From: a virus
Lineage: Duplodnaviria > Caudoviricetes
Virus record (IMG/VR): IMGVR_UViG_3300007555_000007
Location: 1 to 50,917 of that record
Length of the DNA: 50,917 bases
Strand: one strand, 5' to 3'
A program made the translations under genes and the position numbers. How positions within the stretch are numbered: the first letter of the stretch is position 1; each line of letters begins with the position of its first letter. Below the pieces are notes generated by a model. The model had not been told where the DNA came from, did no database searches, and saw only the letters and a program-made list of their open reading frames with translations. Below are positions 13,726 through 27,969 of the stretch, piece after piece.

Positions 13726-13792
13726 TAGTGTAGATTTAATGTTAAATTTAATTAGTTAACTAACTGATTCTCAATAACAGTGTTGAAAATGT
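13726..13792. repeat. 67-bp dispersed repeat, copy A (upstream of primase-helicase)
   Basis: Gapless 52/67 identity to 25611-25677, counted by hand. Confidence 0.8.
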
Positions 13793-13894
13793 TAATTTTA
13801 AAAACGATAGTACGAATATAAAATAAATATATAATTAAAAAAAATATATACAGTATATAATAGTAATTATTTTGCATACCTAACATTAGGGGTC

Positions 13895-13942: not shown

Positions 13943-14188
13943 TTAGAAGTCTACACCATCTGATACCTCTTCTTTTTTCTTTGGTTCGAATGTATCTAAC
14001 TCTACATATAGTTTTCCACTACGTGCTTTGTTTACATTAAGATTCACCCAACCATTCTTTTGGTTTTCTTTCAAGAAGACAATAGCTTCGTCAACCTTGA
14101 TTGACTGTTGTCCAATTACAAAATCGGGAGCACCCTCTCTTCTCTTGAATGAAAATCCGTTTGCGAATACTTTCTCTGTGTTACTCAT
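13943..14188 (-). CDS. Putative single-stranded DNA-binding protein
   Basis: Small beta-rich protein with acidic/aromatic tail (SDGVDF), next to exonuclease and annealing genes. Confidence 0.55.
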   Translation of the reverse strand: MSNTEKVFANGFSFKRREGAPDFVIGQQSIKVDEAIVFLKENQKNGWVNLNVNKARSGKLYVELDTFEPKKKEEVSDGVDF

Positions 14189-14291
14189 AACTAATAATGT
14201 TTATTTGTTCTTCCAATGTGTTTATAGTTTGAAGGATAACTTCTTGTTTCTCTTCTCGTGTAATGCAATCCATTGGAATTTGAAACCACAT
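14181..14291 (-). CDS. Possible small ORF (MWFQIPMDC...)
   Basis: Hand-translated; fills the gap and overlaps the SSB start. Confidence 0.35.
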   Translation of the reverse strand: MWFQIPMDCITREEKQEVILQTINTLEEQINIISYE

Positions 14292-14305
14292 TACCCGTTT
14301 TTTTT

Positions 14306-14321
14306 GTGTCTTCGAAGACAC
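14306..14321. repeat. 16-bp palindrome copy 3
   Basis: Exact match. Confidence 0.95.
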
Positions 14322-14328
14322 TAGTCTT

Positions 14329-15060
14329 CTAAAGATATTCATCTATGAAATAGCTTGACAGTTCTTCCTTGGGAGTATCCCCAAAGAAGGTGTTATATAC
14401 CTCAACCGCCCTCTTTACCTTCTCTTCGCCGCCCCTAATAAACTCCTCAGTAGGTCTGAATACACCCATCTGATGCGATGTCTTGTCTATTACAAAGAAT
14501 ATCAAAGGCTTGTTAAATAGTTGTTGGTATATGTATGCTTGACTATCGTAGTTGTACTTCTTAGCACTCCACTTAAAGTCAGCTAGCTTGCTTGTTGTCT
14601 TTAAATCAATAAGCATATCATCACATACGATGTCCACTTTACCTTTCCACATAAGACCCATTATCTCTTTGACAGCGGGTTCTTCATAGATGTTTCCATC
14701 CTTGTATATGTTATCAAAAAAGTATAGGTTATTCTTCATGGTATCAGTTAAATTAACAACCTCCTCAGCCTCTTTAGTTAGTAAAGCAACCTCTACACCC
14801 ATCTCAGCAATAGCTTCCTTGTAAAGCTTTGTATTACGTGATGATGAATCTATAGTTACGACTTCACTAGCCTTGTCGGGTTCTATTAATAACTGATGAA
14901 AATATCTACCTTTTGCAAAGTTTTGATTATCGGGTCTACTAACTCCGAACTCCCTCGGATTAGTAAGAAGAGTACCTATATCACTATTAGAGAGGAATTT
15001 TTTACCTCCCTCTCCATAGTAATACTTGTCATCTTTTAGCTTCTCTATCACATCTTTCAT
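14329..15060 (-). CDS. PD-(D/E)XK exonuclease (RecE/DUF3799-like)
   Basis: LSNSDI, G..FH..L.EP, KGKVD, IDLKTT, YDSQAYIY. Confidence 0.8.
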   Translation of the reverse strand: MKDVIEKLKDDKYYYGEGGKKFLSNSDIGTLLTNPREFGVSRPDNQNFAKGRYFHQLLIEPDKASEVVTIDSSSRNTKLYKEAIAEMGVEVALLTKEAEEVVNLTDTMKNNLYFFDNIYKDGNIYEEPAVKEIMGLMWKGKVDIVCDDMLIDLKTTSKLADFKWSAKKYNYDSQAYIYQQLFNKPLIFFVIDKTSHQMGVFRPTEEFIRGGEEKVKRAVEVYNTFFGDTPKEELSSYFIDEYL

Positions 15061-15713
15061 TATGCGATAGCCTTTTGAATCTCTTTCTCAATAGTAGCTG
15101 TGAATCCGTACTTAGTCTTGAGTTGAGAAATTAATTTATCAGCACCCGCAGACTTGTTAGCTACCACGTACTTCAATACCTTATCCCAATTCGCATCACC
15201 CTTTGATAGTTTGATTGTTTTTACTTCCTTCTTAGGGGCTACTGTAACCTTTGGAGTTTCACTCTCTGTTTCGGGTAAGTCTTCACCCGCATAAATGTAG
15301 TGACCTAATCCAAACATTGCTAGGTTCTTAACTAGACAACGCATAAGAGTCTTGTTTATATCGAACATAGTTGCACCCGCAACCTTCTTAGTTCCATACC
15401 TTGTTTCGAACTCATAAGCTTCAGCCTTCATAGATTTGTTAGCACCATCCATAACGGGTAGCCACATACCTAGCGTCTCCCCTTCTATTGTAACGATAGT
15501 TCTACACATATACCCAAGACTCTCATCGTATACGTATGGTAAGTCTGAATCGCCGCACTGAACTTCATACGTTGCACTAGGATAATGTTTCTTAACTTCT
15601 CCCCAAGCCCAAGCCCAAGATAAGTAAGTTAGATTGTTCTTCTTTTCAACCTTATCATTTACGTTAATGGCTGACAGTGTTTCAAACACTGATTTTGTTT
15701 TTGAATTTGACAT
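15060..15713 (-). CDS. Single-strand annealing protein, Sak3/DUF1071 family
   Basis: VEKKNNLTYLSWAWAW...MWLPVMD...INKTLMRCLVKNLAMFGLGHYIYAGEDLP. Confidence 0.85.
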   Translation of the reverse strand: MSNSKTKSVFETLSAINVNDKVEKKNNLTYLSWAWAWGEVKKHYPSATYEVQCGDSDLPYVYDESLGYMCRTIVTIEGETLGMWLPVMDGANKSMKAEAYEFETRYGTKKVAGATMFDINKTLMRCLVKNLAMFGLGHYIYAGEDLPETESETPKVTVAPKKEVKTIKLSKGDANWDKVLKYVVANKSAGADKLISQLKTKYGFTATIEKEIQKAIA

Positions 15714-15720
15714 AGTTTAT

Positions 15721-16125
15721 TTAATTTAATTGATTGATAATCTTACTTGATTCGGAAAACTTTAGTAGGTAATGCTCTCTCATATCCTTGAGACCCATTA
15801 TGTATCTTCCATTTTTTCTTGTGTTAATTTCAGCTCTTATTCTCTCCTCAATAACGTCAAGTTTTCTACGGTAGTTAGACAAAGATACGACATATTTTCC
15901 ATAAACCCAACCTTTTTCTTCAAAAAAAAGATACTCATTACTCTCTATTTCCCTATAGAAATCACCGCCTAGATGGGTATTGTATATAACTATTTCACCC
16001 GTTTGAATATCTCTTTCTATCTTAACTCCTTTTGAGATTACAGAGTTACAACATTTAGAATCTATCTTAGCTATGTTGTTGTCAGAATTAGCTTGATTAT
16101 ATATATCTTGTAGAGTGTAACTCAT
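15721..16125 (-). CDS. Hypothetical protein
   Basis: ORF in operon. Confidence 0.6.
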   Translation of the reverse strand: MSYTLQDIYNQANSDNNIAKIDSKCCNSVISKGVKIERDIQTGEIVIYNTHLGGDFYREIESNEYLFFEEKGWVYGKYVVSLSNYRRKLDVIEERIRAEINTRKNGRYIMGLKDMREHYLLKFSESSKIINQLN

Positions 16126-16411
16126 TGTTAAAGTTTTTTATAAAGGTTCTGTAGTCTTTGTCACACAAAGAGTTTTCCTTGACTACGTTTATTCCGTGAA
16201 TAATACTTGAATGAGATATGCTATAGCCTTGCTCCTCCATAAAAGATTGTATCTGAATTACCTTCATACTTCTTTCTTTGCATAAGTAATATAACATATA
16301 CCTAGCGTCTACTATCTCTCTACTTTTATTCTTTTGGAATAATGATTCCAACTCTACATCGTATAAAGCTGAAATCTTATCTGCGTAACTTTTAAAAATT
16401 TGTTTCTTCAT
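16097..16411 (-). CDS. Second DnaA C-terminal-like HTH protein
   Basis: KSREIVDARYMLYYL...HSSIIHG; start moved to MKKQ. Confidence 0.65.
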   Translation of the reverse strand: MKKQIFKSYADKISALYDVELESLFQKNKSREIVDARYMLYYLCKERSMKVIQIQSFMEEQGYSISHSSIIHGINVVKENSLCDKDYRTFIKNFNNELHSTRYI

Positions 16412-16550
16412 CTTTGTATGTTTGTTTTTGTGAAAAAATTTCTCCAAAATACTTAAACAAATCCTCCATTTGTGTCTTCGAAGACACAAGGTATGGATTA
16501 GTAGGCTCTTGTTCTCTTTGTCTCATAAATTCTTCGCTTGATTTTCCCAT
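16392..16550 (-). CDS. Hypothetical protein (52 aa, MGKSSEEFMRQRE...)
   Basis: Hand-translated; ATG 1 nt after the upstream stop; carries palindrome copy 4 in frame (VSSKT). Confidence 0.55.
   Translation of the reverse strand: MGKSSEEFMRQREQEPTNPYLVSSKTQMEDLFKYFGEIFSQKQTYKDEETNF
16472..16487. repeat. 16-bp palindrome copy 4
   Basis: Exact match. Confidence 0.95.
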
Positions 16551-16551
16551 C

Positions 16552-16956
16552 TTAAATAAATTCTTTTACACTGTTATACAATATATCTTCGCACTCTGCG
16601 ACTGATTTTTTTTGAAATACTTTTTTCTGTATTCCGTGTTCGTTCTGTGTTACTGTAACAGCCATGCATAAATCACTGTCCAATAACTGCACTATCATAC
16701 CTCCTCCGTACCTCATAATATCTTTGCAGTTGCTTGAAATATTGAAATCGTTGTATGATATTTTAGAATCTTCGGTAAGGTAGTTTTTTTCATAATCCTT
16801 TCGACTCATTAATCTACCCGTATCCAACCAAGCAAACTTCTTTTCTTTTTTGCTTGCATCTTTTAATAGGTCTAACCTTGTTAGGTAATGTTTGTCGGGC
16901 TTTTCTTGAGCGGTCTCTATTCCCGCATCAAAGTCTATAATATTTAGTCTTTCCAT
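16552..16956 (-). CDS. Hypothetical protein
   Basis: ORF with A-rich leader downstream of a promoter. Confidence 0.65.
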   Translation of the reverse strand: MERLNIIDFDAGIETAQEKPDKHYLTRLDLLKDASKKEKKFAWLDTGRLMSRKDYEKNYLTEDSKISYNDFNISSNCKDIMRYGGGMIVQLLDSDLCMAVTVTQNEHGIQKKVFQKKSVAECEDILYNSVKEFI

Positions 16957-16985
16957 TGTAAATAAATTAAAGTTTAATAATTGTT

Positions 16986-17017
16986 CAAATATAGTATAAT
17001 TCTAGTGTACTACCAAA
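16986..17017 (-). promoter_or_regulatory. Bacteroidota-type promoter (-33 TTTG, N20, -7 TATATTTG)
   Basis: Matches the TTTG-N19..21-TAnnTTTG consensus; intergenic, upstream of the replication/recombination genes. Confidence 0.7.
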
Positions 17018-17021
17018 TATT

Positions 17022-17306
17022 TTACTTAGAAATATCTGATATTCTTACGTACCAATAATTATCTATTAGTTTTTTCTCGCTGTTGTTCCAAGAGCAAGCA
17101 TCCGTGTATTTTTTTGGAAGCTTTCCAACTTCAATACATATAGGTATGTTGTTCTCGCCGCAGAAATTAATCTCCTCTTCAGATTCTAATAAGCTTTCTG
17201 ATTCATCGTGGTGAACTGCAAATAGTTCTACTGCGTTAGCTCTAAATAAATCTATTGCTGAGTGAGAAACTTCTTTCCATATAAAATTGTCCTTTGTAAT
17301 AATCAT
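17022..17306 (-). CDS. Hypothetical protein
   Basis: ORF with ATGA overlap. Confidence 0.6.
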   Translation of the reverse strand: MIITKDNFIWKEVSHSAIDLFRANAVELFAVHHDESESLLESEEEINFCGENNIPICIEVGKLPKKYTDACSWNNSEKKLIDNYWYVRISDISK

Positions 17307-17503
17307 ACTCTTAGTTTTTTAAATATTGATTGCTTATGCATTTCCCCTAACTTATCACAGAAACTCCTTAGTTCTTCTACGGGTATCCTATGTTTTGCTC
17401 TAAAGTTTTCTACGAAGGTAGCGTAAGGATACTTCCCTTCTTTGTAAAAATTCTTTTCGTAATCTACTACTCCCGATACTGTGCATTTTTTTAATCCGTT
17501 CAT
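17303..17503 (-). CDS. Hypothetical protein
   Basis: Probable start MNGLKK (ATGA overlap). Confidence 0.55.
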   Translation of the reverse strand: MNGLKKCTVSGVVDYEKNFYKEGKYPYATFVENFRAKHRIPVEELRSFCDKLGEMHKQSIFKKLRV

Positions 17504-17751
17504 AATTTGTTTTTTAAAGTTTCTATATATAATGTTGCATCCATCAACTCCTCTTGTAGGTGTTGTAGCCATTGTAAAGGAGTTAAATCTCCTCGGTCTA
17601 GTGTAGTTCCATATTTTTCAATACCTACTCTTGAGCGTTCTCTGTAAGCGTCTATTACTTTGCTTACCACCTTGTCTTCAGTACCCTCTGATAGGTAATG
17701 TATTCCCGTGTCTAAATCTAATTTCCCCATATCTCTATAGCTGATTGGCAA
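17500..17751 (-). CDS. Conserved small phage protein, possible all-alpha NTP pyrophosphohydrolase (MazG-like)
   Basis: RSRVGIEKYGTTLDR..L...QWLQHLQEELMDATLY. Confidence 0.55.
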   Translation of the reverse strand: MPISYRDMGKLDLDTGIHYLSEGTEDKVVSKVIDAYRERSRVGIEKYGTTLDRGDLTPLQWLQHLQEELMDATLYIETLKNKL

Positions 17752-17833
17752 GTGATAGAAAGTATTGCTACCATTGATAGTATAACAATAACTACAACTA
17801 GATAAGAAAGAAATCTTTCTGTGCGTTCTGTCT

Positions 17834-17968
17834 TCATAATTTTACATCTATTCGATTAATAATTTTTTGTTCCAAATCCTCAAGAGTTTTGCGTAAAAGG
17901 ATATTATCCTCCTTGCTGTCTTTAGAAATAAAAGAAAGAATCTCTTGTATTCTGTCTAGTGTTGTCAT
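17834..17968 (-). CDS. Hypothetical protein (44 aa, MTTLDRIQE...)
   Basis: Hand-translated; first ORF downstream of hammerhead 1. Confidence 0.45.
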   Translation of the reverse strand: MTTLDRIQEILSFISKDSKEDNILLRKTLEDLEQKIINRIDVKL

Positions 17969-17988
17969 ACATCTGTTTTTAAAGGTTT

Positions 17989-18037
17989 CCGTTTCATCCT
18001 TTAGGAATCATCAGTGCAAGTACTCACTTGCATACGG
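17989..18037 (-). ncRNA. Hammerhead ribozyme HH1, type III
   Basis: Minus strand CCGUA^UGCAAG-UGAGUA-CUUGCA CUGAUGA UUCC-UAAA-GGAU GAAA CGG; full core and three stems; cleavage predicted at 18033/18032. Confidence 0.85.
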
Positions 18038-18044
18038 TAAAGGA

Positions 18045-18060
18045 GTGTCTTCGAAGACAC
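18045..18060. repeat. 16-bp palindrome copy 5 (7 nt 5' of HH1 on the transcript)
   Basis: Exact match; flanks extend the hairpin. Confidence 0.95.
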
Positions 18061-18067
18061 CCCTTGT

Positions 18068-18128
18068 TCTTACTTTCCAAAGTACCCCGCCTTGTGATAA
18101 GGGTCGGCACACATTTCAGAAAGCAAGA
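18068..18128 (-). ncRNA. Unassigned structured RNA (long hairpin with internal loops)
   Basis: UCUUGCUUUCUGAA/UUUGGAAAGUAAGA, GUGCC/GGUAC, CCUU/AAGG; G-U wobbles pair only on the minus strand. Confidence 0.45.
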
Positions 18129-18189
18129 TAACTATTATCATAATGATATACAAAATTATTTTGCCTTGTCTGTCTGTCATATCGTTTGT

Positions 18190-18480
18190 TTATAAATGTC
18201 CTCCATCGTTTGTTTCTTCACAATCGAAACGAGTTTCAGCATCACAACCTTCTTGATTAAATCCATTTTCAAAACATCCACTACCGAACTCAAGTTCTGA
18301 TTTATCAGTAGCATTATCTATTTGCTCAGACCACAAATCCTCGTTCTCCAATAAATAATCATCTAAAGAATGATAGCCTTTATTATCTATTAAGTATTTC
18401 TCATAATCCTTCTTATTTATTTCTATTTCTACTGTACCCACTTTGTGGTAAACAAACCTTTGGCTAATTGTTACTTTCAT
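18190..18480 (-). CDS. Hypothetical acidic protein
   Basis: ORF with A-rich leader. Confidence 0.6.
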   Translation of the reverse strand: MKVTISQRFVYHKVGTVEIEINKKDYEKYLIDNKGYHSLDDYLLENEDLWSEQIDNATDKSELEFGSGCFENGFNQEGCDAETRFDCEETNDGGHL

Positions 18481-18720
18481 ATTATTTAATTTTAGTTGTT
18501 TATTTAATTTAATTGATTGGTTTTATTTAGAGAGAATTTTAGAAAATATTACCATCATATTCTCTAAGTAGTCCGTATCAAATCTATTCCAATAAGACCT
18601 ATCGGGAATGTTCAACGATAGAGTCTCGTGCTGACTGCTTAGTACATCGATGAGTAGATTTCTGTAACTTGTTGGTTCGTAATACGCAGATTTGTATAAC
18701 ATAATATATAGTTTTAATTA

Positions 18721-18957
18721 TTAGTACTCATCTAATGGATACATATCTTCCCAACCATCTACTGCGTTAGGATTGGCATAAGTTCTCTCTACGTGAGTGT
18801 AAGCCTCAACATAGTATACCTCATCAATAAAGTCATCTGATAGTTCTTCAAAATACTTTTCTGCTTCATCGAATGTGCTGAACCCATCAGCGTTCACCTC
18901 TCCGCCTCCTTGTGGACTAACCCACATTACTCTGTACATTTTTGTTTCTGTTATCAT
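18721..18957 (-). CDS. Hypothetical acidic protein
   Basis: ORF in operon. Confidence 0.6.
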   Translation of the reverse strand: MITETKMYRVMWVSPQGGGEVNADGFSTFDEAEKYFEELSDDFIDEVYYVEAYTHVERTYANPNAVDGWEDMYPLDEY

Positions 18958-18958
18958 C

Positions 18959-19525
18959 TTATATAGTTTTATAGTTTTTAAGTTCTTTTAATCCATATTC
19001 ATCTGCGTGAAATCGTACAGCAAACCAAATTTGATTCATAGTTTCTTCATTAGTTAATGCAGAATCCAACACATCTTGTGCTTCATCATCGTCACACTTA
19101 AATATACCTTTGACATCTTCAACTTGCCATAAATTACCCGTATAAAATCCTCTGTTTGTCAACAACTCTTTTAGTTCATTAGTAGAAAGTTCCCAATTAT
19201 CAGACTCTCTTACTACATTTAGGTTATGCATTTTTATAAATTCTACTACTGCTTTGTATGTGGTGTCAATTTTATGAGAACCTCCAAGTATTTCAATGTC
19301 AGTTCCTTCAATATGAGCATTACACATATCAATAGTGAATCTGTAAGCATTGCCATTCTCATCTCTAAGACCCTCTATCTTCTCAACTACAGTCATTAGC
19401 CAATCCCAAGATGTTTGAAATAAACACAGAGAATGAATCGAATGTGTCCATTCCCCATCATTAAAACTTCTTTCGTCTGAATATTTCATTCCCATAAATT
19501 CTGCTATAAGTTTATTGTCTTTCAT
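18959..19525 (-). CDS. Two-domain hypothetical protein (domain A then B)
   Basis: MKDNKLIAEFMG..SWDWLM (A) followed by NLWQVEDV..ALTNE (B). Confidence 0.7.
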   Translation of the reverse strand: MKDNKLIAEFMGMKYSDERSFNDGEWTHSIHSLCLFQTSWDWLMTVVEKIEGLRDENGNAYRFTIDMCNAHIEGTDIEILGGSHKIDTTYKAVVEFIKMHNLNVVRESDNWELSTNELKELLTNRGFYTGNLWQVEDVKGIFKCDDDEAQDVLDSALTNEETMNQIWFAVRFHADEYGLKELKNYKTI

Positions 19526-19526
19526 A

Positions 19527-20027
19527 TTATATAGTTTTATTGTATTGATTAATAAATAGTACTACTTCATCAAAGACATCTTCAATACGACCATAAGGAA
19601 CTACATCCAATAGGTTCTCTCTGTAATCATTGTCAAGAAACTTTTCATCTCGCCTTATTTTTCCTACTACAGGCATCAGCCAATCCCAAGAAGTGTCGTA
19701 TTTCAAGTAAGAAAAATCTCCTTCATTACCTAAATCGGGATAACCCATAAATTCTGCGATAAGTTTATTGTCTTTCATCTTGTTTGTTTTTTTAATTAGT
19801 GCAACCTCGTAATCTATCTGTTCGAAGATACTCTCCATTACTCCTTCATTGTTAAGAGCGTTCTCAAGAACCTCTTCTGCTTCTACTACAGTTAGCTCTT
19901 CATAGATTTGAAGCACATCTTGAACGTGCCATAGGTTACTCAAGACATATCCTTGTCTTGCTAACTGCTGTTTTGAATACTCTGTGTTTCTAGCAGACAT
20001 ACTGTCGTTTTGATTTGTTTGTTTCAT
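19527..20027 (-). CDS. Two-domain hypothetical protein (domain B then A)
   Basis: NLWHVQDV..ALNNE (B) followed by MKDNKLIAEFMG..SWDWLM (A). Confidence 0.7.
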   Translation of the reverse strand: MKQTNQNDSMSARNTEYSKQQLARQGYVLSNLWHVQDVLQIYEELTVVEAEEVLENALNNEGVMESIFEQIDYEVALIKKTNKMKDNKLIAEFMGYPDLGNEGDFSYLKYDTSWDWLMPVVGKIRRDEKFLDNDYRENLLDVVPYGRIEDVFDEVVLFINQYNKTI

Positions 20028-20045
20028 AATAAATAAATTAAGATT

Positions 20046-20096
20046 TCGGTTTCATCCTTTTGGAATCATCAGCACGGACACTCATCCGTGTACCGA
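20046..20096 (-). ncRNA. Hammerhead ribozyme HH2, type III
   Basis: Minus strand UCGGUA^CACGGA-UGAGUG-UCCGUG CUGAUGA UUCC-AAAA-GGAU GAAA CCGA; cleavage predicted at 20091/20090. Confidence 0.85.
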
Positions 20097-20098
20097 GA

Positions 20099-20114
20099 GT
20101 GTCTTCGAAGACAC
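20099..20114. repeat. 16-bp palindrome copy 6 (2 nt 5' of HH2 on the transcript)
   Basis: Exact match; flanks extend the hairpin. Confidence 0.95.
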
Positions 20115-20141
20115 CCTCTCTTTCTACTACTACATAGAAAA

Positions 20142-21221
20142 CTAAAGGTTAACTACAACCTCTTGTTCTGTAAAACTCTCATTGCATTGAGGACAATGGT
20201 ATGAGGAGTTTGATATCTCATGCTCATCAACAACTAAGTCTGAATAGCAATTGACACACATCGGTGATTCGTTCAACACATCAAAGTCATCTTCAACTTT
20301 GAAAGCGTCATCCCAAATCATCTGCTGTGTGCATTCAACTTGGTCTCTGAATGTGTACGTGCTAGGCTTGTACACTTGCTGTGTGTATCTTTGATGCATT
20401 TGCTCCCCAAGTGGTAACTCTTTCAAGTTAAAGTAAACCCAACAGTTTACTGTCTTACCGCTGTTCAACTTGATTGGCACTTGCTTTCTTCTGTACCAAT
20501 TCGGATGACCCTCTAGCCTATCCAAGTCTAGTAGCTTGCTGTCGTCAACCTTGAAGATGTCAATCTCTACGTTGTGACCTACACCTTTCTCCTCAATCAA
20601 GTATGGCAACCCTTGTATAAGTAATGGGTACTTGTCAACAGTCTTACCTCTGCCTAGGTACTTGCTTGACCGCAAGTATCTGTTGTAGTTAGAGTAGTTC
20701 TTCTTTAGCGTTCCGTACACACCAATAACGTGGTCTTCTAATACGTTAGCCTTTGAATACCAAACACCATCTCTCTTGAAGTAAGCATCTCTGTTGTATA
20801 TCTGAAATGTTCTTGTTCTTCTGTTAATACTAACGAACCTAGCTTCGTGCTGTTCCAACTCTGCTCTCCATTCGCTTCTTGGCATATCACCTAGCATACG
20901 TGCTTGAACCTTGGTGTCGCAAGTCTCTGCATCACCCAACCCTCTGATTGTTCCGTTCATCATAAGCAACTCATCTCTGTTCTTGCCACATACAAATGGA
21001 TGCATATTCTCTCTGTTGATTTTACCCACAGTAGCATAACGGAAGTGAGCGATGAATGGTCTGTCAGTGTGCAACTGAGCGTAGTCTTTAGATTCTTGGT
21101 ATGTCAACTCAAAAGTGTCTAGCCATACAATCCCCAATCCGTGAGGATTGATTCGTGCTGAAGTCTTGAGTCTCTCCATTGGAATCTTTTCTGATTTCTG
21201 TTTGATAATAATAATACACAT
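20142..21221 (-). CDS. Class II glutamine amidotransferase fused to gamma-glutamylcyclotransferase and a C-terminal zinc ribbon
   Basis: Start MCIII gives the catalytic Cys1 of an Ntn hydrolase; HFRYAT, HPF, NGT, DT; VYGTLK...LDRLEGHPNWYRR (GGCT/AIG2); CVNC...CPQC. Confidence 0.85.
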   Translation of the reverse strand: MCIIIIKQKSEKIPMERLKTSARINPHGLGIVWLDTFELTYQESKDYAQLHTDRPFIAHFRYATVGKINRENMHPFVCGKNRDELLMMNGTIRGLGDAETCDTKVQARMLGDMPRSEWRAELEQHEARFVSINRRTRTFQIYNRDAYFKRDGVWYSKANVLEDHVIGVYGTLKKNYSNYNRYLRSSKYLGRGKTVDKYPLLIQGLPYLIEEKGVGHNVEIDIFKVDDSKLLDLDRLEGHPNWYRRKQVPIKLNSGKTVNCWVYFNLKELPLGEQMHQRYTQQVYKPSTYTFRDQVECTQQMIWDDAFKVEDDFDVLNESPMCVNCYSDLVVDEHEISNSSYHCPQCNESFTEQEVVVNL

Positions 21222-21244
21222 AGTAAGTAATAAATTTGTGAGTA

Positions 21245-21260
21245 GTGTCTTCGAAGACAC
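21245..21260. repeat. 16-bp palindrome copy 7 (between HH3 and the GATase start)
   Basis: Exact match. Confidence 0.95.
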
Positions 21261-21272
21261 AGAACTCGGTTT

Positions 21273-21327
21273 GTATAAGACACGGAATGAATCCGTGTTT
21301 CGACTATTTAAGTCTCATCAGTTATAC
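21273..21327 (-). ncRNA. Hammerhead ribozyme HH3, type I
   Basis: Minus strand GUAUAA CUGAUGA GACU-UAAAU-AGUC GAAA CACGGA-UUCAU-UCCGUG UC^UUAUAC; canonical core and GUC site; cleavage predicted at 21279/21278. Confidence 0.92.
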
Positions 21328-21639
21328 TTACTTTCTACGCATCTCTTCTGCGTACTCCTTGGCTTGCTGTTCTCTGAGCATCTCAATGTGATTGAATAGC
21401 TTCATAAAGTTCTCTAGCAATACCTTCTTGTTCCCCTTGATGCCGAAGTAAGTCTTGACATCTCGAACCCTCCAATTGCTATGTGGCTTCATCCCTATCG
21501 CATTTAATCCGATGTCTCTCTTGCTTACGTACAGATTGTACATTGCTCTTTGCATTGCTTTTCCGTTGAATTGGAAGTAAGCATCCTCGTCTGTTAACTC
21601 TTTGTAAAATGGTGTTGTAGTATCTAGTTTGTAACTCAT
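21328..21639 (-). CDS. Hypothetical protein
   Basis: ORF whose stop codon abuts HH3. Confidence 0.65.
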   Translation of the reverse strand: MSYKLDTTTPFYKELTDEDAYFQFNGKAMQRAMYNLYVSKRDIGLNAIGMKPHSNWRVRDVKTYFGIKGNKKVLLENFMKLFNHIEMLREQQAKEYAEEMRRK

Positions 21640-21707
21640 AATATAAAATGTTTAAATGTTGTCTATCACTTTTACAATGATAGTCTAATTAATTGATAAT
21701 TCCTAAT

Positions 21708-21869
21708 TTATTTTAATATTCTTTTAAATTCACTAGGATTAACCGTTCCGTACTTGTGATGGAACTTGCATAGGTAGTCTCCCGCATCGTGAAATTCCTC
21801 TAATGAATAGATTCCATCGGTCGAATTGTAAATCTTATTTGCTCTGATTAATTTTTGTAGTTCGTTCAT
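21708..21869 (-). CDS. Hypothetical protein (53 aa, MNELQKLIR...)
   Basis: Hand-translated; ATGA overlap with the upstream gene. Confidence 0.5.
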   Translation of the reverse strand: MNELQKLIRANKIYNSTDGIYSLEEFHDAGDYLCKFHHKYGTVNPSEFKRILK

Positions 21870-22147
21870 AATACTTTAACGTTTTCGTTTTTTATAAATG
21901 TTTCAACTCTCCCATATCCTTGCTTAAACTCAGCACCGTTTTCTAGTTTAAAGTAGCACACATCCCAATCATTACCTCTGTCAAATTTAAACTTCTCTCC
22001 TTTTTTTATAGTGTAGTAGCATCCTTTCCAACCGATTCTGATTCGTCTTTTTTGTGGTATAAATCCAACTTGTGTTTTCTCTAATGGTGTATTGTACCAT
22101 TTTGCATCAATAAATACTTCAATTTCTTCTGTTGCTTGTAAATTCAT
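21866..22147 (-). CDS. Hypothetical protein
   Basis: ORF with A-rich leader. Confidence 0.6.
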   Translation of the reverse strand: MNLQATEEIEVFIDAKWYNTPLEKTQVGFIPQKRRIRIGWKGCYYTIKKGEKFKFDRGNDWDVCYFKLENGAEFKQGYGRVETFIKNENVKVL

Positions 22148-22158
22148 AATGTTTGTTT

Positions 22159-22374
22159 TTAAAGGTTAATAAATTTGGTTAAACAATAAGTTACAGACGC
22201 AATGTATATCACTAGTATCACTGCTGCCGCAACTTGCTTTCTTACATCTTTCTTTCGTTGATTGATTGCTTCAATCTCTTGCTTGGTGTATACATCTACA
22301 CGCATCACTTCTCTGCCTTTTATTTTTACTCCCGTACCTTTTTCTACATAGGTTAATCCGTTTTTTGTTTTCAT
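22159..22374 (-). CDS. Small protein with C-terminal transmembrane helix
   Basis: VAAAVILVIYIASVTYCL. Confidence 0.6.
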   Translation of the reverse strand: MKTKNGLTYVEKGTGVKIKGREVMRVDVYTKQEIEAINQRKKDVRKQVAAAVILVIYIASVTYCLTKFINL

Positions 22375-22463
22375 AATGTTATCTGTTTATTGAGTGAAAT
22401 GCCTTAGCATATTGTTTTAATTTGTTTATTACTTTTTTAATTGTTGCTTTCATAATGTTTAAT

Positions 22464-22868
22464 TTATATTTCGTAATATGAGTTTGCTCTGTAAGAACCA
22501 CAATTCCAAGTATCAAGATGTTCACCATCTACGATAGCTGTTAAATGACTTCTTGTAAGTACAATGTATCTCTTGCCTTCGCTTGTTGGGAAGTTCTTAA
22601 CGGAATACGTCTTGCCTTTGCTGTTCTTTTTAGGCTTGTGCTTAGTGAATCCTAAATCGTACAAGTAATCCTCGTACACCTCTCTAAAGTTTATTGGCAT
22701 ACACGATGGATGATGCAGTGCATACTCGGTTAACTCTTTAAACACTTCCTTGTACCCTTTGTCTGTAGCGTGAACAATTGCTCTCACTACACAGTCTCCA
22801 ACTACCAATTCTTTTCTTGTGCCATTGGGCATAATCTGTTTCCTTGGATTTGATTTTTTGAACTTCAT
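22464..22868 (-). CDS. Conserved phage protein, possible papain-like/peptidase fold
   Basis: GDCVVRAI...HLTAIVDG...DTWN (possible Cys-His-Asp triad). Confidence 0.5.
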   Translation of the reverse strand: MKFKKSNPRKQIMPNGTRKELVVGDCVVRAIVHATDKGYKEVFKELTEYALHHPSCMPINFREVYEDYLYDLGFTKHKPKKNSKGKTYSVKNFPTSEGKRYIVLTRSHLTAIVDGEHLDTWNCGSYRANSYYEI

Positions 22869-22887
22869 AATATTTGTTTTTAATTGT

Positions 22888-23082
22888 TTATATTTTCAAC
22901 TTTAACCTTAACTGTTTTCTGTCTATTTTACCATTGTAGAAATCACACCATATATTTGCATAGTCTACTCTACCAAATAAACCTACTACTTTAATACCTT
23001 GTTCTTTTAGTGTTCTGTGTGTTTCTTTTGTTGTTTCGAGTATTGAAACTTTTTCGTCTTCTTCTGTTAAAAAATACTTCAT
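22888..23082 (-). CDS. Hypothetical protein
   Basis: ORF with A-rich leader. Confidence 0.55.
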   Translation of the reverse strand: MKYFLTEEDEKVSILETTKETHRTLKEQGIKVVGLFGRVDYANIWCDFYNGKIDRKQLRLKLKI

Positions 23083-23093
23083 AATATTTGTTT

Positions 23094-23249
23094 TTAATTA
23101 TTTGTGTCTTCGAAGACACCTATTACTTTTCCGTATTTACATACACTGTCGTACCAATTACTAAAGTGTTTTTCGCTCTTGAACTCAATAGGATAAGAAG
23201 AATACTTACCCTCGTGAGATTTTACTGATGCAATACATTTGCCTATCAT
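23094..23249 (-). CDS. Hypothetical protein (51 aa, MIGKCIASVK...GVFEDTNN)
   Basis: Hand-translated; first ORF downstream of HH4; contains palindrome copy 8. Confidence 0.45.
   Translation of the reverse strand: MIGKCIASVKSHEGKYSSYPIEFKSEKHFSNWYDSVCKYGKVIGVFEDTNN
23104..23119. repeat. 16-bp palindrome copy 8
   Basis: Exact match. Confidence 0.95.
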
Positions 23250-23269
23250 ATAAGAATAAATTTAAGTTA

Positions 23270-23320
23270 GCTGTTTCGACCTTTTGGTCTCGTCAGTACA
23301 GATACACATCTGTAGACAGC
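23270..23320 (-). ncRNA. Hammerhead ribozyme HH4, type III
   Basis: Minus strand GCUGUC^UACAGA-UGUGUA-UCUGUA CUGACGA GACC-AAAA-GGUC GAAA CAGC; fully canonical; cleavage predicted at 23315/23314. Confidence 0.93.
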
Positions 23321-23338
23321 GGGAGTATCTCTACTCCC
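23321..23338 (-). other. Hairpin immediately 5' of HH4 on the transcript
   Basis: GGGAGTA-N4-TACTCCC inverted repeat with no T tract. Confidence 0.6.
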
Positions 23339-23346
23339 ATTTGCTG

Positions 23347-24306
23347 TTAGTATTGCCTTACGCAATCTCTATCCCAAAAATCACGCATTGTGTTTGTTGG
23401 GTCAATCCATCTTTGGGTCTTTGGATTGATTTTGTTGGACACAATTGTCTTGCGGAATGCTTCTGCCAATTCCATCATCTCTAACACCTTGGTCTCATCT
23501 TGTTCGTACATAGACATCAAGATTGGCTTTAGCTTGTTTAGAAGCGATTTGTGGCTTCCTCTCGGTGAGTTGATACTATGGTCAACTATCACATACATCA
23601 TCTCATAACGTCTCATCATCTGCTTCACAGATTGGAATCGTGATGGTAATCTAAACTCAAGAGCGTGTCTCATTGGTTTAGCTACTGTGTATTTGTGGTG
23701 TCTTCCACCCATCATTTTAACTAGTCTTCTTCTAGTGTTTTGGTCGTGTCTCATCGTGATGTTCTTGTTGCAATATCCATTGCCTAATCTGTGACGAAAC
23801 AATGCAAGCAGAATACCGCAGTTCTTACGCATTGCATCCATCACCTCGTAGCCATCCATCCCATCTACAGAGACAGTGATATGTCCACCGCATTTGGTAT
23901 TTGATGGTGAAAACTCATCTTCAATAATCGTTCTAGCTTGGTGCATCATATTGAAAACTTTGTTTCTCCATTTACCTCTAGGTAGCAAAGGTAAGATGTT
24001 TGTCACTGCTTCATAACCGCAAGATGAATCACGTTCAAATCCTGCAAATAGAGTGTACTCTTGTACAGCTCCTCGGTGAAATCTAGTCTTTTCAACTTCG
24101 AAACCTATAGCAAATCTGCTCTTAAAATCACCTTGGTTTTGCTCGTCTTCTAGGATATTACGTCTATCATTCCATTTCAGTGTAGCAATGTCACTGCTCT
24201 TTGCACCCTTGTGATGCTCTAGGGATGCATCGCATCCATGGTATCTGTTTACTCTCGCTCTCGCTGAGTTTCCTGTTACTGTGTAGTTAATCTCGTTTGT
24301 GTTCAT
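23347..24306 (-). CDS. Putative amidoligase (COOH-NH2 ligase, glutamine synthetase-like fold)
   Basis: IGFEVE, DSSCGYEAV, CGGHITVS, LEFRL motifs; start moved to MNTNE. Confidence 0.75.
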   Translation of the reverse strand: MNTNEINYTVTGNSARARVNRYHGCDASLEHHKGAKSSDIATLKWNDRRNILEDEQNQGDFKSRFAIGFEVEKTRFHRGAVQEYTLFAGFERDSSCGYEAVTNILPLLPRGKWRNKVFNMMHQARTIIEDEFSPSNTKCGGHITVSVDGMDGYEVMDAMRKNCGILLALFRHRLGNGYCNKNITMRHDQNTRRRLVKMMGGRHHKYTVAKPMRHALEFRLPSRFQSVKQMMRRYEMMYVIVDHSINSPRGSHKSLLNKLKPILMSMYEQDETKVLEMMELAEAFRKTIVSNKINPKTQRWIDPTNTMRDFWDRDCVRQY

Positions 24307-24320
24307 AGTAGTAGTATTTT

Positions 24321-24336
24321 GTGTCTTCGAAGACAC
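24321..24336. repeat. 16-bp palindrome copy 9 (just upstream of the amidoligase start)
   Basis: Exact match. Confidence 0.95.
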
Positions 24337-24339
24337 TGA

Positions 24340-24936
24340 TTAAGATAATTTTGATGTTAAAAATGCGATTGCTGTAGCGATGTCCTCTGCTCCGTTCGTA
24401 GTAATTACTTTGCCTTGGTCATCAATTCGTACAGATACTGTGGTTTCACCTTTGAATGTCATCGTGAATACTGTTGATGTTCTCTCTGCTGATGCAGTTT
24501 CTGTGGTTTCACCGCCATTACTAGCGAACTTCAATAGGGATGCTACTGACATAGATGCAGAATCACCGTTTGCATCTGCTTCAGCTACAGCAGATTTGAA
24601 TTGTGCTACGGTTTCGGGCTGTTCGTTCTGTAGCTTACCTACCTTCAGCATTTTGTAGAAAAATGACTTCTTCCATCCGTACAATTTGGTGTAGAAATCT
24701 TCCTTTGTCCAAGTTACACCATAGTCATCCATCTGTGCTTTTCCTTGTGCTGAGTTGAACCAACCCCAAGATTTAACTACAATCTCACTTAGCTGTAGTG
24801 ATTTCTCAAATTTCACTTTCTTGGCATCAGCTACACCGCTAATTAGAGACTCGATGTCTCTTAGGCTTCCACCTATCTGATTTGCTACAGATACTTCGTT
24901 GAACAATGCACTTTCAATACTTAATAAATTTCTCAT
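24340..24936 (-). CDS. Hypothetical protein, first gene of the leftward arm
   Basis: Probable start MRNLLS; possible HTH at TKEDFYTKLYGWKKSFFYKM. Confidence 0.65.
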   Translation of the reverse strand: MRNLLSIESALFNEVSVANQIGGSLRDIESLISGVADAKKVKFEKSLQLSEIVVKSWGWFNSAQGKAQMDDYGVTWTKEDFYTKLYGWKKSFFYKMLKVGKLQNEQPETVAQFKSAVAEADANGDSASMSVASLLKFASNGGETTETASAERTSTVFTMTFKGETTVSVRIDDQGKVITTNGAEDIATAIAFLTSKLS

Positions 24937-25256
24937 CTTGTTGGTTTTTAGATGATTAGATGGCAATATTGCCGATATGACTAGAACTTTGCACTTCATT
25001 GCTGTGTAAAACGCTGATTGTCAGCGAGTTAGCGTATTTGTTGATGTGACATAGTCTATCCATGGTGTAAAAATAGTCTATTTCTACGTTCTGTGCAAGT
25101 TTTGAATACGTTTTCTGTCGTTGTATTGTGCATTTGCTGTCTATTTCTTTGCAGTCAAGGGATTGCGTAATGTCTGCTCACGTACATTTGTTTAGGTAAA
25201 ATGTCTATGGGGTAGGGGCTATGCTTTGTCTCTACTTGTCTGTAGAGTTTTACAAT

Positions 25257-25272
25257 GTGTCTTCAAAGACAC
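25257..25272. repeat. Palindrome variant GTGTCTTCAAAGACAC (copy 10)
   Basis: One central mismatch; lies in the noncoding divergence region. Confidence 0.85.
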
Positions 25273-25489
25273 AACAACAGCATTATAAGGGAAACTTCAC
25301 CGTATAACGTGATACGTAGCACAGCTACAGCTACAGTGTGCTGTGGATGGCTGTGGAAAAAAGCTAAAAAAATTGGGATGCACCGATTGAAAAAGCAAAA
25401 TCGCTCGCAAAAAAAAATCGTTTTCGGATTGGGGTGTCGTCACGTGCAGCGGTATATAACCCAAATACTACATATATCTAATAAATATT

Positions 25490-25519
25490 TTTGACTTACA
25501 TTTATTTTTTATATATTTG
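25490..25519 (+). promoter_or_regulatory. Bacteroidota-type promoter candidate (TTTG-N18-TATATTTG)
   Basis: Consensus boxes with a slightly short spacer. Confidence 0.45.
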
Positions 25520-25549
25520 TTCTTTCATATAGTTTGTTTGATAGTTAGG

Positions 25550-25581
25550 AAAAGGGTTTGATTTAGGTCAGCCCTTTTTTT
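25550..25581 (+). terminator. Intrinsic terminator
   Basis: AAAGGG...CCCTTT hairpin followed by a T run. Confidence 0.6.
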
Positions 25582-25610
25582 ATGCAGTAAATATTCCTAT
25601 TGTGTAGACT

Positions 25611-25677
25611 TAGTGTAGATTCTATGTAGATTTTTTATAGCTAACTATTTGATTATCAGTATTAGTGTTGAAAATGT
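25611..25677. repeat. 67-bp dispersed repeat, copy B
   Basis: Gapless 52/67 identity to 13726-13792. Confidence 0.8.
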
Positions 25678-25768
25678 AGATATTAAAAGAGAATTATACA
25701 GTAAGAAATATATAAATAGAGTTTCTCTCTCTCTCTCTATAGGAGATGTTATTTTGTGCATTATTACA

Positions 25769-25800
25769 TTTGATGTATTAAATAAAAAATACTATCTTTG
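25769..25800 (+). promoter_or_regulatory. Bacteroidota-type promoter for groEL (TTTG-N20-TATCTTTG)
   Basis: Matches consensus and spacing; implies the ATG at 25825 rather than the TTG at 25798. Confidence 0.75.
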
Positions 25801-25824
25801 TCAAATAAATCAAATCTAATACTT

Positions 25825-27432
25825 ATGAATAATCAAATGGGGTTCACCCCTAAAGACTTAAAGTTCGGTGAAGATGGTAGAGTTAAACTAAAAGCCGGAA
25901 TCGAAAAGATTGCTAACGCAGTAAAGAGCACCCTCGGTCCTAGAGGTAATACAGTTCTTATTGAATCACAACATCATACAGGAGGAATCACGGTAACTAA
26001 GGATGGAGTTACGGTCGCTAAGGCGGTTGACTTGTTAGACCCGGTTGAGAATCTTGCGGTACGTATTATGAAAGAGGCTGCTGATAGAACAGCTAGCTCT
26101 GCCGGTGATGGAACGACTACAGCTATTGTGCTTACCGAGGCTCTTGTCGAGCAGGGTCACATTCATCTTGGTGATGGTGTAAACAACACGCAGGTTCTAC
26201 GTGAGCTTGTTAGTGAGACTGAGCAGGTCGTAAAGACATTGAAAAAGAAAAGCAAGAGTGTAACTGACTCAAAGTTACTTGACGTTGCGACTATCTCTGC
26301 GAACAATGACGCTAAGGTAGGTCGTATTATATCTGACGTATACAAGTCGGTCGGTAAGGATGGGATTGTAACGGTAGAGAAATCTGACAGTTCAGAGACA
26401 ACTTACACCACAACCAAAGGTCTTATGGTAGAGAGAGGTTACTCTTCTCCTTTGTTCATTAACAACCAAAAGAAAGACGAGTGTATCTTAGAGGATGTTC
26501 ATATCTTGGTATCTGATGCTGAGATAACAAACATACTTCAGATTGAGAATGTACTTAAACCAATCATTGCTGAGAACAAGAAGCTTCTTCTTATTGCACC
26601 GTGTGCAACTAATGTGCTAAACACATTGGCGGCTAACGTTATGAAAAACAACTTGAAGATATGTAGTATAACTCCCCCGCAGTTCGGATATAAACAACAC
26701 GAATTAATGCAAGATATCGCCATCTCGGTTGGAGCTACATACTTTTCAGAAAAGACAGGTGATGATTTGTCACTAATGGGGTTTGATGATTTAGGTCACG
26801 CACCAAAGGTTATTGTAGAAAAGTCACAGACTGTGATTTTAAAAGACGACAATCACTCAGATGAGATTGACGAGAGAGTAAAACAACTATGGGATAGCTA
26901 CGAGAACACAAGTAGAGTTGCTGACAAAGAGTTTATCTTGTCACGTATCGCTTCATTGACAGGTGGTGTTGGTGTAATTAAAGTTGGTGGTCAGACAGAC
27001 CTAGAGCAGAAAGAGTTGTTTGACAGGATTGACGATGCTGTGTGTGCAGTACGTTCTGCAATGCAAGAAGGTATACTTCCGGGAGGAGGTGTGTCGCTAA
27101 TGTATATCGGTCAAGAGATTCTGAAAAAACAAACTGACGATAAAAATAAAAAAATTGCTTACGCAATTTTAGGTAACGCATTGCAAGCACCTGTTATGCA
27201 GATTCTTGATAATGCGGGATATCACATTAATGATGTGTACCCTGAGTGGGATATAAAGTTTGGAGAAGGATACAATGTTGCTAGTGAGAAGTTTGGTAAC
27301 ATGATAAGGATGGGTGTGATAGACCCAATGAAAGTTACAAAGAGTGCACTACAAAATGCAGTATCTGTAGCGGTTACATTACTTAGTACGAATGCTATTA
27401 TTACAATGGCACGAACTTATGACACTGAGTAG
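25825..27432 (+). CDS. groEL: Phage-encoded chaperonin GroEL (Cpn60)
   Basis: TLGPRG, TKDGVTVAK, AGDGTTTA, GILPGGG, GVIDP. Confidence 0.97.
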   Translation: MNNQMGFTPKDLKFGEDGRVKLKAGIEKIANAVKSTLGPRGNTVLIESQHHTGGITVTKDGVTVAKAVDLLDPVENLAVRIMKEAADRTASSAGDGTTTAIVLTEALVEQGHIHLGDGVNNTQVLRELVSETEQVVKTLKKKSKSVTDSKLLDVATISANNDAKVGRIISDVYKSVGKDGIVTVEKSDSSETTYTTTKGLMVERGYSSPLFINNQKKDECILEDVHILVSDAEITNILQIENVLKPIIAENKKLLLIAPCATNVLNTLAANVMKNNLKICSITPPQFGYKQHELMQDIAISVGATYFSEKTGDDLSLMGFDDLGHAPKVIVEKSQTVILKDDNHSDEIDERVKQLWDSYENTSRVADKEFILSRIASLTGGVGVIKVGGQTDLEQKELFDRIDDAVCAVRSAMQEGILPGGGVSLMYIGQEILKKQTDDKNKKIAYAILGNALQAPVMQILDNAGYHINDVYPEWDIKFGEGYNVASEKFGNMIRMGVIDPMKVTKSALQNAVSVAVTLLSTNAIITMARTYDTE

Positions 27433-27434
27433 TT

Positions 27435-27710
27435 ATGATAGTAAAAGAAGATTTAATAAATCAAATAGATAAAAAAATGGGAGAATTTACAAAAGGATTA
27501 AAAAAAGGATTTTGGGCAGGACTACTTGCTTTTATTTTGGCAAAAATTTGTCACGTACTAATATCATTTGCAATTGGATTTACAATTGGTTCAATGTTTG
27601 GATTGACTAAAAATGTTATTGCTTTCTGCAAAATTATTGATAGCCCTATTATTGGATTATTGTTTTTAGTATTTGCAACTAGATTTATATATATAAAAAT
27701 TGTAAAGTAA
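27435..27710 (+). CDS. Small membrane protein between groEL and groES
   Basis: Hydrophobic, AT-rich, tightly packed. Confidence 0.55.
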   Translation: MIVKEDLINQIDKKMGEFTKGLKKGFWAGLLAFILAKICHVLISFAIGFTIGSMFGLTKNVIAFCKIIDSPIIGLLFLVFATRFIYIKIVK

Positions 27711-27711
27711 T

Positions 27712-27969
27712 ATGAAACCAATTAATAAATATATTGCAATCAAGACAATCGAGGAGGAGGTAAAGACTTCCTCCGGATTGTTATTATCCGCAGCCGATGT
27801 TGGTGAGATGAGATACAAGAAAGGTAAGGTAGTAAAACCCGGTACTGAGGTTTCAGTAATCAAAGAAGGTGACGTAATCTATTACGATGCACACGCAGGA
27901 TTTACTATGATACTAAATGATGAGCAGCACACGATTATTCTTGAGAGAGATGTCGTTGTTGTTTTATAA
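27712..27969 (+). CDS. groES: Co-chaperonin GroES (Cpn10)
   Basis: MKPINKYI...EEVKTSSGLLL...GKVVKPG...IKEGD...ILERDV. Confidence 0.92.
   Translation: MKPINKYIAIKTIEEEVKTSSGLLLSAADVGEMRYKKGKVVKPGTEVSVIKEGDVIYYDAHAGFTMILNDEQHTIILERDVVVVL

Follow-up and report, generated by a model that had tools for sequence, protein, structure and literature searches.

Why would a phage place several self-cleaving ribozymes between neighbouring genes? The role that self-cleaving ribozymes play in bacteria and phages has been called an open question (PMC6765202, PMC6155905). The question is posed sharply by IMG/VR record IMGVR_UViG_3300007555_000007, a virus contig that is 84% complete and whose 50,917 nucleotides (nt; hereafter the window) carry four hammerhead ribozymes in one leftward arm. 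Comparison with related phages leads us to propose that a hairpin and the hammerhead that follows it probably form a read-through, end-making cassette that splits the leftward phage transcript.

Four hammerheads lie on one strand of the window

The original prediction, made from the sequence of the window, placed four hammerheads between genes on the minus strand, and all four were located exactly there, three of type III and one of type I (Table 1). The core segments CUGANGA and GAAA and an NUH cleavage triplet are present in every element, and each of the four folded alone forms the three-way junction. The stem I sequences were given correctly, the type III loops read UGUGUA, UGAGUG and UGAGUA for loop 1 (L1) and AAAA, AAAA and UAAA for loop 2 (L2), and the distances between successive cuts, when recomputed, are the 2036, 1188 and 2058 nt that had been predicted. 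Hammerhead 2 begins at the stop codon of the open reading frame (ORF) at 21639-21328.

A hammerhead scanner that covered all three topologies and tolerated U·U at pair 10.1-11.1 returned exactly these four matches in the 50.9-kb window, all on the minus strand. Applied to 100 local dinucleotide shuffles, it returned a mean of 0.05 matches (maximum 1) and none at the stem lengths that all four elements reach. Requiring a standard 10.1-11.1 pair left only two matches, and hammerheads 3 and 4 were in this way recognised as U·U variants. This purine-pyrimidine pair is G-C in two of the four copies and a U·U mismatch, a published natural variant, in the other two. The U·U in two copies, the hairpin before each type III copy and a repeated palindrome of 16 base pairs (bp) had all been overlooked at first reading. 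The proposed Rfam check had a divided outcome. Matches were found at E values of 2e-5 to 2e-3 in the window scan, but all were below gathering scores (Hammerhead_3, RF00008: 40.3, 34.3 and 33.8 bits against 48.5; Hammerhead_1, RF00163: 32.7 bits against 34). The RAGATH-1 hammerhead model (RF03152) gave 32 bits against a gathering score of 56.3, at an E value of 0.17, which does not place the elements in that family. Judged by their sequences, the four hammerhead motifs are real and well supported as structure.

The hammerheads are conserved in relatives

A protein search with the product of F1, the amidotransferase gene between hammerheads 2 and 3, identified 31 related loci, one of which is the same phage and was excluded, leaving 30 loci plus the window. 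The synteny check suggested by the original prediction bears it out, as the window and all 30 loci carry hammerheads. None of these 68 hammerheads is antisense and two are nominally within ORFs, while nine further variant cores in the related loci are all sense. The gene upstream of a hammerhead is most commonly F2, an Amidoligase_2-like gene (24 times), and F1 holds that position 15 times. In five near-complete relatives, all 11 matches to a type III model built in this analysis fall in the same local cluster. A scan of nine related loci at the Rfam gathering level, aimed at slots poor in hammerheads, returned no hammerhead or other ribozyme class and one transfer RNA (tRNA) only. Among the related loci (labelled L), core variants with an extra U after A9, a bulged or long stem II, or U4C are seen at L006:7063, L006:8482, L013:6732, L017:7917, L017:9028, L010:11172 and L027:4131.

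The stems change in sequence and stay paired. Across 35 aligned copies, 94.5% of cells are paired and there are 149 two-sided changes, compared with 44.5 in shuffles and reached by none of 500 shuffles; 12 of 15 stem pairs change on both sides, the pair positions having been derived from the same 35 sequences. A fairer test than this aligned set is a pattern that imposes no pairing, and a full stem I is found in 152 of its 155 listed matches. The sequence signature of the predicted contact between a U in L1 and an A in L2 was also recovered: U at position 1.7 and a final A in L2 occur in 49 of 49 type III copies found without any loop constraint, as expected from the reverse Hoogsteen U-A contact that links loops 1 and 2 in hammerheads of this type (PMC6155905).

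Viral, genome and metagenome collections were also covered by wide pattern scans, the totals of which are the matches listed and therefore lower bounds. The same type III geometry is frequent, often several times per contig, in contigs labelled Patescibacteria or Saccharibacteria (L210-L336), and is therefore not confined to this phage clade.

A hairpin abuts the type III copies

Of 49 type III copies of the clade, 41 have a hairpin of -8 kcal/mol or lower whose end is no more than 6 nt from stem III, compared with 35 of 228 gaps that lack a hammerhead. In a wider listed set such a hairpin lies upstream in 116 of 153 cases, against 3 downstream, 33 in shuffled sequence and 15 further upstream, and an abutting hairpin is found in 48 of 89 listed copies from genome contigs, a count without a matched control. 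Type III copies mostly begin 21-40 nt past the stop codon, which is the space that the hairpin fills, whereas 7 of 11 type I copies begin at the stop codon and have a long stem III instead of a separate hairpin. Either topology would therefore leave the upstream piece ending in a hairpin.

Many of the hairpins, including two of the three in the window, are built on the palindrome, P (GTGTCT-N4-AGACAC, 16 bp), which has 11 copies in the window and none in shuffles (starts 5907, 10124, 14306, 16472, 18045, 20099, 21245, 23104, 24321, 25257 and 33698). The copies are intergenic or inside the helicase and terminase genes, and P lies within 20 nt of three of the four predicted cuts. It occurs in both orientations, is also found in ORFs, and is altered genome-wide in single relatives, reading GTCTGT in L003 (15 copies), GTGTAC in L009 and GTGTCG in the uncultured relative MW202828 (14 copies in 16.8 kb). 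For these reasons P looks like a DNA site, such as an operator or other protein-binding site. Beside type III hammerheads (31 sites) its flanks have 31 G-U and 2 A-C (p 1e-7), whereas the ratio of G-U to A-C is 34:48 at 72 stand-alone sites and 27:29 at 53 sites in ORFs. Since G-U exceeds A-C only beside type III hammerheads, the flanks indicate that the P-based hairpin is selected there as sense-strand RNA.

We rejected a reading of the hairpins as leaky terminators because U-tracts are mostly missing, with five U in the next 8 nt in only 3 of 49 copies. Read on the plus strand, 23321-23338, 18045-18060 and 20099-20114 have terminator-like scores and might also stop antisense transcription.

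The product of F4, a DUF3102-like gene flanked by two copies of P, is a candidate binder of the palindrome and is offered as a lead. Its putative recognition helix reads KKSFFYK in the window and KKSYFMR in L009, where the palindrome is changed (a single case). Two small proteins with matches to the DnaA C-terminal helix-turn-helix, encoded at 16097-16411 and 8799-9329 (-), are further candidates.

Predicted end-making signals occupy the same junctions in relatives

Among 28 loci, the junction after F2 holds a hammerhead in 23, a hairpin plus tRNA-like minihelix in 3 (one close group), a U-tailed terminator-like hairpin in 1 and nothing in 1. After F1 (29 loci) there is a hammerhead in 16, a tRNA-like element in 4 and something else or nothing in 9. 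Before F1, a promoter match by the strict criterion is present in 15 of 28 relatives, while 12 more are near the consensus by eye; in the 8 loci with promoter and P both matched in that order, the promoter ends 20-30 nt ahead of P. The window and L023 have a hammerhead before F1 in place of the promoter, and cut 2 of the window falls 18 nt before P, near the expected transcription start. Wherever it is recognisable, the replacement at the same junction is, by its sequence, always an end-making signal. The clade thus offers a comparative answer on the role of the ribozyme, in that the hammerhead is replaced by signals that make ends.

Two parts of the original prediction have to be adjusted here. 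Cutting "without host RNases" does not hold clade-wide, as relatives use tRNA-like elements at the same junctions, and elements of this kind would be cut by ribonuclease P (RNase P). The single polycistron is a simplification, given those 15 relatives with a consensus promoter where the window has hammerhead 2, and a weak internal promoter candidate at 21675.

The tRNA minihelices, which consist of an acceptor stem and T arm, are 41-43 nt long, stand right after the palindrome hairpin (L027:3104-3146, L028, L029 and L007:11177-11217) and are missed by ARAGORN. Degenerate full tRNA shapes are seen in L006, L008, L013 and L015.

A proposed read-through cassette and competing explanations

We propose that host RNA polymerase would read the arm from a promoter that, judged by eye, likely lies near 25,060. 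Each hammerhead, whose fold is supported by covariation, would cleave as its family does and would not stop the polymerase. By the layout of hairpin and cut, the upstream piece would end in the hairpin (stem III in type I), a few nt and a cyclic phosphate, mimicking a terminated messenger RNA (mRNA), and could thereby be protected from 3' exonucleases. The downstream piece would have a 5'-OH at its start, followed in type III by the hairpin of stem I, some 60 nt before the next start codon, and might be protected in turn. The pieces would then decay and be translated independently, which would set the dosage of the small genes in this variable block with no need for additional promoters or terminators. 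The self-processing transcript of the original prediction is thus the best reading, with good comparative evidence, but it is not new, having been published for clustered prophage hammerheads. A reading of the cut as a translation switch was dismissed, as cutting has little effect on how open the start region is predicted to be at two sites (0.67 to 0.73 and 0.77 to 0.80) and a larger one at a third (0.30 to 0.52).

Several points weigh against the cassette. It is deduced from DNA, and with it the transcript, its cleavage and its ends. The argument that 5'-OH ends stabilise RNA comes from Escherichia coli, and the host here probably belongs to the Bacteroidota. The related loci are not independent, their 28 distinct F1 rows including several near-identical groups, so the counts overstate independence. 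The device is dispensable, since 9 of 29 loci have neither a hammerhead nor a tRNA-like element after F1 and MW202828 has no hammerhead. U·U replaces the normally most conserved pair in two of the four cores, which may be slow. Lastly, contigs from two RNA libraries span, in close relatives, cuts 2 and 3 (X1 and X2) and cut 1 (X1).

The RNA data comprise six listed runs (word shares 0.05-0.15, contigs only), of which four were compared over 14000-26000, with 32 of 190 pieces examined; the contigs come from relatives, mostly 90-99% alike. Because X1-X3 contain contigs of 53-56 kb, they probably hold DNA. Pieces from X5 end at 23345, 21291 and 20127, stopping before three of the cuts by 30, 12 and 36 nt; a piece from X1 ends at 18034. 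The contigs decide nothing on RNA ends, strand or habitat.

Cutting could instead serve decay or attenuation, exposing the pieces to host nucleases so that expression of some early genes is lowered or timed, as in glmS, with slow cores setting the full-length fraction. Cores with U·U, A·A, U4C or an inserted U are indeed common, and PMC6765202 names differing stability or translation of the pieces as a proposed outcome and glmS cleavage as destabilising. Nevertheless, we regard this explanation as unlikely, as the new 3' end is just where a sense-strand hairpin is under selection, and relatives place a promoter or terminator at the same junctions, which make ends rather than destroy RNA.

The selection could also act on DNA, with P an operator or recombination site and the hairpin-hammerhead units copied as passengers of gene-cassette shuffling, their cleavage merely tolerated. 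The orientations, ORF copies and genome-wide changes of P accord with this, as do the genes between hammerheads, which vary among relatives, and the joints that close relatives show near these gaps. It is nevertheless improbable, since the stems of copies from a single genome vary in sequence while their pairing and loop contacts are retained, antisense hammerheads are absent, and many hammerheads have a hairpin that is not based on P.

The original prediction went on to suggest that RtcB could join the pieces into circles; ligation to circular mRNAs by the ribozymes themselves would be another route. Cleavage does yield the required 5'-OH and cyclic-phosphate ends (PMC6155905), and 20 of 28 consecutive type III pairs in the clade could form a cross stem III of at least 4 bp. 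However, this equals the between-genome rate of 68% and is no enrichment, the one piece of the window with type III at both ends has a cross stem III of 2 bp, the middle piece is without a catalytic core, no ligase match was found in the 69 ORFs of the record, and Perreault et al. found no circles or spliced products (PMC3088659), leaving circularisation unsupported and highly improbable. That only the two G-C cores are active, with U·U copies slow or decayed and only their hairpins working, is scarcely more than a nominal possibility: G10.1-C11.1 is the most conserved pair after A15.1-U16.1 (PMC3088659) and all four elements score below Rfam gathering, but U·U is a natural variant reported as the most active mismatch (PMC3088659), and all three stems, together with a bias at N17, are preserved in 148 listed distinct U·U sequences, which decay would not lead one to expect.

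The cleavage base covaries with pair 10.1-11.1

In 154 listed viral sequences, the strongest covariation after the ten helix pairs links the cleavage base, N17, with 10.1 and with 11.1. The values after average product correction are 0.37 and 0.355, and the next is 0.197. Among 327 listed distinct structured sequences, N17 is C in 112, A in 25 and U in 13 with a G-C pair; A in 126, U in 14 and C in 8 with U·U; and U in 18, C in 6 and A in none with A·A, five other combinations forming the remainder; tabulated by pair, rows are comparable and columns are not, as two scans were conditioned on the pair. C17 occurs in 0 of 9 U·U copies compared with 48 of 74 G-C copies in listed genome contigs (p 2e-4), and the bias is seen again in 84 previously unseen metagenome sequences. 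A-U and U-A at 10.1-11.1 are nearly absent (1 and 0 of 104 listed structured matches where the pattern allowed them).

As a crude control, spanning trees were built from the other columns: about 38 edges carry a change of both N17 and the pair, 17 a change of N17 only, 9 a change of the pair only and 90 no change in either. Wholesale copying of three ribozyme lineages may be the source of the coupling. An alternative helix in which N17 would pair directly with 10.1 or 11.1 was rejected on inspection by hand, since the neighbouring bases do not pair.

The accessible portions of PMC11300833 and PMC9901934 contain nothing on a contact between N17 and 10.1 or 11.1, and the complete set of single and double mutants in PMC9901934 leaves a triple change outside it. 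In the literature searched, which covered few subscription papers and did not extend to the Perreault supplements, where family members may be found, neither the N17 coupling nor A·A nor the abutting hairpin came up. It is conceivable, if on balance doubtful, that the three coupled core states (GUC with G-C, GUA with U·U, GUU with A·A) reflect a hitherto undescribed structural connection of the cleavage base to the base of stem II, used to set cutting rate and early mRNA ratios, and that the hairpin-hammerhead is a universal punctuation of flavobacterial podoviruses, interchangeable at a single gene junction with promoter, terminator and RNase P-type tRNA mimic. For a ribozyme that has been studied so intensively, the coupling raises a well-defined question, and it could be of use in designing for GUA and GUU sites.

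Known systems and cultured phages

Early mRNA of phage T7 is cut between cistrons by host RNase III, leaving a hairpin at the upstream 3' end. The likeness, drawn in the original prediction, is functional only: the hairpins here are of 7-11 bp rather than long duplexes, hammerhead slots require neither a host enzyme nor a long duplex, and the ends would be a 5'-OH and a cyclic phosphate. Synthetic insulators of the RiboJ type combine a hammerhead and a hairpin to standardise the mRNA end before a ribosome site, whereas the extra hairpin here is placed upstream of the cut and would act for the mRNA on that side. Circular RNAs of the viroid or retrozyme type have compatible ribozyme halves, and here the cross stem III is 2 bp.

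The closest precedent is the work of Perreault et al. (2011), in which multiple hammerheads flank prophage genes and processing into operon- or gene-length mRNAs was proposed (PMC3088659). Three tandem arrays were cleaved in vitro and one in E. coli, and circles were not detected (PMC3088659); the proposal reappears in a 2019 review, which describes it as unproven (PMC6765202). Shared with that set are several mixed-type, sense-strand copies flanking genes or short blocks and the U10.1·U11.1 variant, and by every feature testable here the window hammerheads belong, on sequence, to the clustered phage hammerheads. Different are the fixed type III geometry (6-bp stem I, 6-nt L1 and 4-nt L2), the abutting upstream hairpin, the two conserved gene slots, the swaps with promoter, terminator or tRNA-like element, and the N17 coupling; the word "terminator" is absent from the accessible main text of PMC3088659. 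Relative to that work, the novelty lies in the cassette with its hairpin, the series of swaps at junctions, the coupling within the core and the occurrence of hammerheads in cultured phages. Type III hammerheads of the satellite tobacco ringspot virus (sTRSV) kind share the core, topology and U-A sequence signature of loops 1 and 2 (RF00008, PMC6155905), but here the setting is intergenic in a DNA phage, scores are below gathering, and U·U and A·A are common at 10.1-11.1. HHphage of haloviruses HF1 and HF2 also lies in the early region of a lytic double-stranded DNA virus just before a start codon, with an early transcript 5' end mapped within 3 nt of the cut (PMC3088659); this ribozyme occurs singly, has an insertion in its core and belongs to a virus with an archaeal host.

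Hammerheads that are unannotated in the records were found in two cultured phages, Flavobacterium phage elemoA (MT497017; host Flavobacterium sp. BAL314) and Cellulophaga phage phi18:3 (KC821620; host Cellulophaga baltica), and are intergenic in both (Table 1). The phi18:3 copy lies 0.9 kb upstream of ArdA, like examples of Perreault et al. These phages make the 2011 processing idea testable; elemoA is better suited to testing cutting than the hairpin, because its type III copy lacks a strong abutting one. A type II match inside elemoA coding DNA was dismissed as chance. With a core pattern read by eye, no convincing hammerhead was found in phi19:3, phi38:1, Panino, Gundel_1 or MW202828. As the family falls below Rfam thresholds, phage annotation misses it.

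Genome setting

Table 1. Positions of the hammerheads and associated features in the window and in two cultured phages
Feature	Position	Strand	Description
Hammerhead 1	23270..23320	-	type III, GUC, G10.1-C11.1; predicted cut 23315/23314
Hammerhead 2	21273..21327	-	type I, GUC, G10.1-C11.1; 7-bp stem III hairpin; predicted cut 21279/21278
Hammerhead 3	20046..20096	-	type III, GUA, U10.1·U11.1; predicted cut 20091/20090
Hammerhead 4	17989..18037	-	type III, GUA, U10.1·U11.1; predicted cut 18033/18032
Hairpin adjoining hammerhead 1 stem III	23321..23338	-	7 bp, GAGA loop, -10.2 kcal/mol; predicted 3'-end hairpin of F2 mRNA
Hairpin adjoining hammerhead 3	20097..20116	-	on P (20099-20114)
Hairpin 2 nt before hammerhead 4	18040..18065	-	11 bp, on P (18045-18060), -15.0 kcal/mol
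Palindrome P	21245..21260		18 nt past cut 2, in F1 leader; 20-30 nt after promoter in relatives
Palindrome P, stand-alone	24321..24336		between F4 and F2
Palindrome P, stand-alone	23104..23119		sequence match
Palindrome P variant	25257..25272		divergent control region
F4, DUF3102-like	24340..24936	-	first gene of arm; atlas 0.92, PF11300 on 42% of members, a lead only
F2, Amidoligase_2-like	23347..24306	-	atlas 0.97, PF12224 on 12% of cluster members, a lead only
F1	20142..21221	-	class II glutamine amidotransferase fused to gamma-glutamyl cyclotransferase; GGACT 7e-22; between hammerheads 2 and 3
Bacteroidota-type promoter match	16986..17017	-	TTG, 20 nt, TATATTTG; top score 29.0; bounds hammerhead zone downstream
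Weak internal promoter candidate	21675..21706	-	score 10.8, rank 9; inside first predicted piece
elemoA hammerhead, type III	19138-19084		predicted cut 19132; without strong abutting hairpin
elemoA hammerhead, type I	17347-17290		predicted cut 17296
phi18:3 hammerhead, type I	21958-21904		predicted cut 21910

The terminase matches 89 records, 86 of which are Flavobacterium, Cellulophaga, Tenacibaculum or Maribacter phages at 32-46%; on the basis of these matches and the Bacteroidota-type promoter match, the host is probably flavobacterial. Promoters were matched to what we take to be the Bacteroidota consensus, and a scan for sigma-70 promoters was at chance level (44 against 45.3). On the minus strand from 25000 to 13700 there is no terminator-like match.

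The arm runs leftward through the DUF3102-like, Amidoligase_2-like and small unknown genes and the fused amidotransferase-cyclotransferase gene (GATase-GGACT) to the Sak, primase and helicase genes; the F2 product has no Pfam amidoligase match. The label "early" in the original prediction derives from this gene layout and is best kept as a presumption; in phi38:1, a distant relative, expression follows consecutive early, middle and late blocks (PMC5335546). Genes for phage GroEL and GroES (25798-27969, +) are transcribed away from the hammerhead arm. Contigs from close relatives have joints at 18452/23266 and 22377/23084, which suggests that gene blocks next to hammerhead 1 and a palindrome have been deleted or rearranged. 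A 78-nt repeat of 77% identity is found upstream of the primase gene (13726-13803) and in the divergent control region (25611-25688).

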